From assembly GCF_003991155.1 (NCBI RefSeq), contig NZ_CP031293.1: a stretch of 64,000 nucleotides of DNA; one strand, written 5' to 3'. A program made the position numbers and the translations under genes. The notes beneath the pieces are model-generated. The model made no database searches, was not told the DNA's origin, and saw nothing but the letters and a program-made list of their open reading frames with translations. Below, piece after piece: positions 54,399-55,472 of this stretch (positions are counted from its first letter, which is position 1; each line of letters opens with the position of its first letter). The DNA is from Escherichia coli (lineage in GTDB: Bacteria > Pseudomonadota > Gammaproteobacteria > Enterobacterales > Enterobacteriaceae).

Positions 54399-55472
54399 AT
54401 GAAAAGAAAAGTTCTGGCAATGCTGGTCCCGGCGTTATTAGTTGCTGGCGCAGCAAATGCGGCTGAAATTTATAATAAAGATGGCAATAAAGTTGATTTC
54501 TACGGCAAGATGGTTGGCGAACGCATCTGGTCAAATACTGATGATAATAACAGCGAAAACGAAGATACCTCCTATGCTCGTTTCGGTGTTAAAGGTGAAA
54601 CCCAAATCACCAGCGAACTGACTGGTTTTGGTCAGTTTGAATACAACCTCGACGCCAGCAAGCCCGAAGGCTCTAATCAGGAAAAAACCCGTTTAACCTT
54701 CGCAGGTTTGAAATATAACGAGTTAGGATCTTTCGACTATGGTCGTAACTACGGTGTTGCTTATGATGCCGCAGCTTATACCGATATGTTAGTTGAATGG
54801 GGTGGTGATTCCTGGGCGTCCGCTGACAACTTCATGAACGGTCGTACCAACGGTGTTGCAACCTACCGTAACTCTGATTTCTTTGGTCTGGTTGATGGTC
54901 TGAATTTTGCTGTGCAATATCAAGGTAAGAACAGCAATCGTGGCGTTACTAAACAAAACGGTGATGGCTATGCGTTGTCTGTAGACTACAACATCGAAGG
55001 TTTTGGTTTTGTAGGTGCATATAGCAAATCTGATCGTACTAATGAACAAGCTGGTGACGGCTACGGTGATAACGCTGAAGTGTGGTCATTAGCAGCCAAG
55101 TATGATGCAAATAATATCTATGCAGCAATGATGTACGGTGAAACCCGCAACATGACCGTTTTGGCTAATGATCATTTTGCAAATAAAACCCAAAACTTTG
55201 AAGCTGTTGTACAGTATCAGTTCGACTTCGGTTTACGTCCGTCTTTAGGCTACGTATATTCCAAAGGCAAAGATCTTTATGCTCGTGATGGACATAAAGG
55301 TGTTGATGCTGACCGCGTAAATTATATCGAAGTTGGTACCTGGTACTACTTCAATAAGAACATGAACGTCTACACAGCATACAAATTTAACCTGCTGGAT
55401 AAAGACGATGCAGCGATTACCGATGCCGCAACTGATGACCAGTTTGCAGTTGGTATCGTCTACCAGTTCTAA
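54399..55472 (+). CDS. yedS: OmpC/OmpF-family outer membrane porin, intact, at the position of the K-12 yedS pseudogene
   Basis: Signal peptide [21 protein letters not shown], mature N-terminus [16 protein letters not shown] and C-terminal VGIVYQF typical of general porins; symbol assigned by synteny only. Confidence 0.85.

Follow-up and report, generated by a model that had tools for sequence, protein, structure and literature searches.

OmpK35 is, by name and in the literature, the Klebsiella counterpart of OmpF, and OmpS1 of Salmonella is a quiescent porin. Both serve as points of comparison for the gene described here, a porin gene that lies in the yedS slot of the Escherichia coli chromosome. 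The K-12 gene yedS has been equated with ompS1, under which label it was found to be transcribed, with a detectable mRNA, and to be repressed by sigma-E (PMC2731931). The small RNA gene adjoining this slot, rseX, is silenced by H-NS and StpA (PMC8313858), and the yedS-yedR intergenic region is variable enough to have been used as a host marker (PMC11267920). At the protein level, a YedS-like porin fragment, not specific to any one allele, was recovered in the surface proteome of an O26:H11 strain (PMC9731836), and of 141 healthy people only one had antibodies to K-12 YedS (PMC11242715), a rate that fits either low expression or a mismatch of alleles. Finally, an active yedS porin in a clinical isolate was linked to carbapenem susceptibility, as the work of Warner et al. 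(2013, AAC 57:1935) is cited in PMC4048246 and PMC11267920.

The window analysed here, a stretch of 64,000 nucleotides of E. coli DNA (NZ_CP031293.1), is 99.99-100% identical to E. coli 2016C-3878 (NZ_CP029747.1). Its gene order around the porin, dcm-yedJ-drpB-rseX-[porin]-hchA-hprS-hprR, is shared with K-12, and the syntenic gene of K-12 MG1655 is the pseudogene yedS (b4496, 1193 nt). The first-pass annotation had placed the porin where K-12 carries this pseudogene, and it was right, because the K-12 gene order is the same and the flanks are 96-100% identical. Immediately upstream of the porin and on the same strand is rseX (53998..54087, +), an Hfq-binding sRNA gene recognized both from the K-12 annotation and by Rfam RF01401 (96.7 bits against a gathering threshold of 50, E 7.7e-13). 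The terminator scan assigned rseX its own terminator at 54062-54082.

The porin CDS (54399..55472, +), called in the ORF list and consistent with Pfam and RefSeq, runs from an ATG at 54399 to a TAA ending at 55472 and encodes 357 aa in one reading frame. Neither the ORF list nor inspection of the sequence turned up an internal stop or a frameshift between these positions, so the single uninterrupted ORF described in the first-pass annotation stands and the premature stop or frameshift it allowed for is absent. An alternative in-frame ATG ten codons upstream, at 54369, would give a longer ORF, and inspection revealed no ribosome-binding site for it. The start at 54399 is the one used by RefSeq and follows, at a distance of 7 nt, the Shine-Dalgarno-like AAGGGA (54386..54391, +, read from the sequence), which was graded strong. 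The expected signal peptide and C-terminal aromatic residue were both confirmed: the N-terminus is a standard Sec signal peptide with few substitutions relative to OmpC and OmpF, a likeness from which cleavage can be presumed, and the protein ends in ...VGIVYQF, with a terminal Phe. About 40 nt past the stop codon the terminator scan placed an intrinsic terminator (55515..55552, +) with a 12-bp stem containing 7 G-C pairs and followed by a T-run. The GC content of the gene (~0.41-0.47) is below that of the flanking genes (~0.50-0.58). In 2016C-3878 the same CDS encodes WP_000824361.1, for which the PGAP/RefSeq name is simply 'porin', and the exact protein is present on at least 1000 public contigs, where the source names are 'porin' and 'outer membrane pore protein F', with 'Outer membrane protein F' used by UniRef.

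That the product is a general porin of the OmpC/OmpF type, as had been proposed, is supported by a full-length match to Pfam Porin_1 (PF00267; residues 27-357 against positions 1-337 of the 337-position model, E 6e-122), the score of 407.7 bits being far above the cutoff of 23.7 for family membership, and by its structural relatives. Within the family, the best NCBIfam match was to the OmpF equivalog NF007446, at 449.3 bits against a cutoff of 583, followed by the OmpC subfamily NF007841 (431.6 against 484) and the PhoE equivalog NF007544 (423.6 against 599). Since all three cutoffs were missed, the window porin is a general porin that is none of OmpF, OmpC and PhoE. The nearest solved structures by sequence were OmpK35 (E 7e-151), then Omp35 of K. 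aerogenes (5o78, a chain that carried the label 'Phosphoporin PhoE' in the sequence search), and then OmpF. OmpK35 of Klebsiella pneumoniae (5o77, 9hn1) and Omp35 share 67-68% identity and similar loop lengths with the window porin; they come from other species, and the ~32% of residues in which OmpK35 differs lie mostly in the surface loops.

The beta-barrel prediction suggested in the first-pass annotation was run with AlphaFold2 on a 30-sequence alignment and returned a model (pLDDT 81.2, pTM 0.78) with 16 predicted strands. The long loops are on one face of the model and the short turns on the opposite face, so that the predicted fold is a barrel of 16 beta-strands that has its long loops outside the cell and its short turns in the periplasm. 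In Foldseek, the model matched OmpK35, OmpF and OmpC with TM-scores of 0.84-0.91, and OmpK35 5o77 with TM-scores of 0.86/0.91 at 67% identity. Alignment placed K37, R61, R98 and R149 at the OmpF constriction residues K16, R42, R82 and R132, and D129 and E133 at the acidic residues D113 and E117 of loop L3; across the 30 sequences K37, R61, R98, R149 and D129 were invariant and E133 nearly so. Loop L3, the constriction loop, spans codons 115-152 (54741..54854, +) according to the AF2 topology and the alignments. OmpF, OmpC, PhoE and OmpN of E. coli share with the window porin the pore-lining residues, a similar signal peptide, a C-terminal Phe and, on the strength of the model, probably the same fold, at an identity of 59-62%.

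Comparing the window with K-12 from dcm to hprS, sliding identity was 96-100% in most 100-nt blocks until ~54467 and again from ~55515. The intervening segment (54468..55514, +), a divergent cassette made up of the mature coding part and the stop-proximal bases, is only 40-77% identical to K-12 per 100-nt block. The CDS starts with 69 nt that match K-12 exactly, the first difference falls at 54468, and from there many substitutions and indels accumulate, with ~139 gap columns. With K-12 YedS after conceptual repair, the window protein shares 61% identity, no more than with the K-12 paralogues OmpF (62%), OmpN (60%), OmpC (59%) and PhoE (59%). In a neighbour-joining tree it grouped with OmpK35-type porins and with the porins found at the same position in Enterobacter and Citrobacter; K-12 YedS, which is nearest to OmpN (72%) and OmpC (67%), grouped with those two. 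K-12 YedS is therefore not the closest relative of the mature window protein. The two nevertheless belong to the same protein family and, together with OmpS1 of Salmonella, occupy the same slot, drpB-rseX-[porin]-hchA. The window protein is the shorter one (357 against 395-404 aa) and is without the long L4, L5 and L6 insertions of the K-12 lineage. Its L3 motif is LVEWGGD, as in OmpK35, in place of the LPEFGGD of OmpF, OmpC, OmpN and K-12 YedS, and PGAP names the K-12 lineage 'OmpC' and the window lineage just 'porin'.

The first-pass annotation had implied that the window gene is K-12 yedS minus its lesions, and in this it was mistaken. The other possibility it raised, that of a divergent ompC paralogue unrelated to yedS, turned out to be half correct with the direction reversed, in that it is the K-12 allele that is OmpC/OmpN-like. 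It had also proposed to find the K-12 lesions by alignment with the window gene. The pair was rejected for this purpose, as the two alleles are too divergent and the lesions can be read only against an intact allele of the K-12 lineage itself. Such an allele exists at the same locus in NCTC9699 (397 aa, 94% nucleotide identity to K-12), and with this comparator substituted the alignment did reveal the lesions: codon 162 has changed from CAG (Q162) to TAG, and codon 221 has lost one nucleotide (nt 663). Together, these two lesions account for the three fragments in which K-12 yedS is annotated. The window porin is thus 'YedS' in the positional sense only, and 'yedS' is better understood as the name of a position than of one protein.

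Alleles from other E. coli strains extend the comparison. Besides the window type (357 aa), JJ1886 has a 371-aa allele with 90% amino acid identity to the window protein and a 14-aa insertion in loop L6; PA45B and NB4833 share a 352-aa type with 69% identity; and the K-12 type (395-404 aa), which is intact in NCTC9699 and S42, carries the PGAP label 'ompC' and appears elsewhere as 'porin OmpC', 'outer membrane protein yedS', 'outer membrane protein S1' and 'OmpN precursor'. The alleles fall into at least three deep lineages, namely window/JJ1886, PA45B/NB4833 and K-12/NCTC9699/S42/O157. Mature coding identity between lineages is 66-71%, against 95.5-99.1% in the flanks, and the gene and its flanks are decoupled: JJ1886 and PA45B have flanks 99.0-99.1% identical and mature coding sequences 70.8% identical, while for PA45B and NB4833 the flanks are 95.6-95.9% and the mature CDS 97.1% identical. 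Synonymous divergence (dS) is 0.95-1.25 from one E. coli lineage to another and 0.51 between the window and JJ1886 alleles, as compared to 0.04-0.10 in dcm, yedJ, hchA and hprS of these genomes. Such a pattern is what one would expect if recombination between conserved anchors moved the mature segment from strain to strain. What the lineages have in common is the upstream region, the 5'UTR, the signal-peptide segment and the terminator. The signal-peptide coding segment (54399..54461, +, 63 nt) was 100% identical in every pair among 8 E. coli strains (the window and the loci L001, L003, L004, L005, L015, L016 and L017), so that codons with dS = 0 stand directly beside a segment with dS ~1; the invariance would mark either an anchor for recombination or an RNA or regulatory element under constraint. 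One E. coli protein of 352 aa (P0021) is of the window/JJ1886 type over its N-terminal ~170 residues and of the PA45B/NB4833 type in its C-terminal half, and such a mosaic implies intragenic recombination between lineages. Most probably, the mature-protein segment is swapped among strains by homologous recombination between the invariant 5' segment and the terminator.

The differences between alleles are not evenly spread over the protein. By predicted topology, identity between alleles is 43-69% in the extracellular loops, 65-95% in the barrel and 76-100% in L3. Nearly all the indels fall in L1, L2 and L4-L8, where the substitutions are concentrated as well. Across the E. coli lineages the dN/dS of the porin is 0.12-0.29. 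The correction added here concerns the slot itself, which is home to several lineages that are deeply divergent and recombine, a situation of which we found no description in the literature searched that mentions yedS. Tentatively, and at somewhat less than even chances, we would go further and regard the slot as a cassette-like hypervariable porin locus, in which at least three ancient lineages, whose dS of ~1 approaches the depth between genera, and their mosaics are swapped among phylogroups, kept by balancing or frequency-dependent selection on the surface loops (by phages, colicins and antibodies) and repeatedly lost as pseudogenes. Such a locus would resemble fliC or the O-antigen loci, with the difference that it would concern a normally quiet porin.

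The lineage of the window porin reaches beyond E. coli. In Enterobacter hormaechei (P0011) and in Citrobacter (P0014), a 358-aa porin with 80% identity to the window protein stands directly after yedI-yedA-vsr-dcm-yedJ. The upstream order there is the same as in E. coli, but hchA-hprSR does not follow directly downstream and drpB was not called. The porin of E. fergusonii is 86% identical. Because the orthologues from Enterobacter, Citrobacter and E. fergusonii match it, the window lineage is the one that different genera have in common at this position. When the window gene is compared with its counterparts in Enterobacter and Citrobacter, dN/dS is 0.06, at a saturated dS of 1.9 or more, and the lineage evolves under strong, long-term purifying selection. 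In the homologue search with the K-12 lineage, the best 120 matches listed were all from E. coli or Shigella.

Within E. coli, the window allele was matched at 99% identity or more in roughly 700 of the 5426 complete genomes, and, at a coverage of at least 80% of the query, there were 2564 matches with the window allele as query, 1864 with that of PA45B and 1662 with that of K-12. These frequencies are rough, because short matches to ompC and to the signal-peptide segment common to the alleles contaminate the BLAST identity bands, and they rest on the matches with at least 80% coverage and on an evenly spaced listing of matches. The cluster of the window protein has 1540 members, most of them full length. 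The slot is at the same time dispensable, since many strains (K-12, O157:H7 F8797 and UMNK88 among them) have inactivated copies. As regards the state of two of these loci, in O157:H7 F8797 (L015, 1570-3687) drpB and the K-12-lineage porin are both annotated as frameshifted. In UMNK88 (L006, 2501-5757) the porin is a decayed copy, frameshifted and with an internal stop; in place of the expected hchA, IS30 and IS600/IS3-family transposase genes and fragments come after it.

The region upstream of the porin (54147..54398, +) is AT-rich, with a GC content of 0.27 in 54150-54449, is 97-100% identical to K-12, and is a candidate H-NS-silenced control region. A promoter scan of the sequence found no sites above chance (6 against 8.3 expected after shuffling). 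One weak promoter-like site at 54278-54305 was likewise not above chance, and as the scan did not exceed the shuffle expectation, we claim no promoter. In the case of MicF, RNAduplex gave no pairing of the seed (MicF nt 1-33) with the porin initiation region from -50 to +30 (dG -7.7, z +1.08), whereas the ompF control in the same test paired clearly (dG -27.1, z -5.05); the MicF tests cover the initiation region only and leave room for pairing elsewhere or for indirect control. Similarly, the 5' 60 nt of RseX did not pair with the porin initiation region above chance (z +0.10), while the controls did so, ompC at z -1.96, and ompC and ompN at z about -2. Duplex folding with full-length MicF and RseX was uninformative, as even the ompF control reached only z = -1.5. 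The quiescent regulation described for Salmonella ompS1 consists of silencing by H-NS and StpA and activation by LeuO and OmpR. By analogy with rseX and with this gene, expression of the window porin would normally be low, under an AT-rich and probably H-NS-silenced control region, and the porin would then gain importance chiefly upon loss of OmpF and OmpC or relief of silencing.

Several other readings of the gene have to be weighed against these findings. The idea that the window porin is the uninterrupted ancestral form of K-12 yedS, the very allele that was later broken in K-12, draws on the shared position, the identical signal-peptide codons and the near-identical flanks. It is hard to reconcile with a mature protein no nearer to repaired YedS than to OmpF, OmpN or OmpC, with the ~139 gap columns and a dS of ~0.95-1.25, or with the place of K-12 YedS beside OmpN and OmpC in the tree, and K-12's own lineage has an intact allele, that of NCTC9699, from which K-12 differs by exactly the TAG codon and the 1-nt deletion as lesions; we therefore give this reading next to no credence. 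Hardly more credible is the view that the gene is an orthologue or a duplicate of ompF. The names 'outer membrane pore protein F' and 'Outer membrane protein F' would suggest as much, as would the rank of the OmpF model among the NCBIfam matches and that of OmpK35 and OmpF among the structures. This identity was rejected on the NCBIfam cutoff, on the 62% identity to K-12 OmpF and on the locus: the score falls well short of the equivalog cutoff, K-12 ompF lies next to aspC while the window gene lies between rseX and hchA, and PGAP calls the product only 'porin'. The best-supported interpretation, which we hold to be highly probable, is that the product is a general diffusion porin of the OmpF/OmpC/PhoE family (Porin_1) that looks functional, that its gene is the resident of the yedS/ompS1 slot between rseX and hchA but belongs to another old lineage than that of K-12, and that the mature segment has been exchanged by homologous recombination.

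Given such a porin, the questions are where the divergent segment came from and whether the gene is put to use. A recent horizontal import from another enterobacterial genus, in place of an old Escherichia polymorphism, would agree with the nearest non-Escherichia relatives being at the same locus in Enterobacter and Citrobacter, with the sharp breakpoints at conserved sequence, which suggest recombinational replacement, and with a GC content lower than that of the flanking genes. However, the closest foreign proteins sampled are only 80% identical, with a dS of at least 1.9, so none of them is a recent donor; the lineage is also present in E. fergusonii and has two deep sub-branches within E. 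coli (window and JJ1886); and low GC is seen in all the lineages and is typical of porin genes. A recent import is thus improbable. More serious, though still on the unlikely side, is the proposal that the gene is intact but effectively silent, has no envelope role in this strain and persists because no lesion has struck it yet. The AT-rich upstream region, the lack of a consensus promoter above chance in the scan, the frequent pseudogenisation in other strains and the quiescence of the Salmonella OmpS1 porin all speak for it. The silencing of the adjoining rseX by H-NS and StpA (PMC8313858) and the rarity of human antibodies to YedS (PMC11242715) point in the same direction. What a merely unbroken gene would not account for is the protein-level constraint indicated by the dN/dS values, both those against Enterobacter and Citrobacter and those between the E. 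coli lineages, or the conservation of the pore residues and L3 while the other loops vary; nor would it be expected in ~700 complete genomes at 99% identity or more and in a mostly full-length cluster of 1540 members. Moreover, yedS mRNA is detectable and regulated in K-12 (PMC2731931), and the O26:H11 surface proteome contained a YedS-like porin, albeit not an allele-specific one (PMC9731836).

If the gene is used as a functional general porin, its route and action can be sketched from knowledge of the family. The Sec signal peptide would be cleaved after ANA, and the C-terminal ...YQF beta-signal would direct BAM-dependent insertion into the outer membrane. The product would be a trimeric 16-strand barrel with a pore narrowed by L3, where the acidic D129 and E133 would face the basic cluster of K37, R61, R98 and R149. 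Small hydrophilic solutes, beta-lactams included, would be expected to pass non-specifically, much as through OmpF or OmpK35, with channel size and selectivity presumably like those of its homologues, and the eight variable loops would be exposed at the cell surface. That the protein is made is likewise a matter of expectation, as are the altered permeability, antibiotic entry and phage receptor repertoire foreseen in the first-pass annotation, which are consistent with Warner et al. 2013, insofar as that work is described in the papers citing it. Since RefSeq lists the protein for hundreds of genomes, and since, according to the same citing papers, a functional yedS has already been published (Warner 2013), an intact porin at this position was known before, and the window porin is an ordinary, catalogued alternative porin.

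An extra intact porin can nevertheless give beta-lactams and carbapenems a way back into cells that have lost OmpF and OmpC, and for phages, colicins and antibodies it is an additional, strain-specific surface target. Reasoning about YedS that is based on K-12, together with the primers, antibodies and resistance calls derived from it, is not transferable to the lineages of 357, 371 and 352 aa. Care is needed with the database labels as well, which for these lineages vary among 'porin', 'OmpF', 'OmpC', 'OmpN' and 'S1'.

A few other features of the window are worth recording. Downstream of the porin terminator, the block 55615-55714 between the porin and hchA has 89% identity to K-12, against 96-99% in the adjacent blocks, and forms a small secondary variable patch. 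The window holds a second hypervariable gene for a surface antigen in its fli cluster, a flagellin gene of the FliC/FljB family (~24439-25770, -, 443 aa). Between fliE and yedK lies an integrase fragment, annotated as incomplete (~32869-33018), which is probably the remnant of an old insertion. Past zinT, a tyrosine recombinase/integrase gene (~63103-64000, +) runs off the end of the window at a place where K-12 has no integrase, which suggests the edge of a genomic island.
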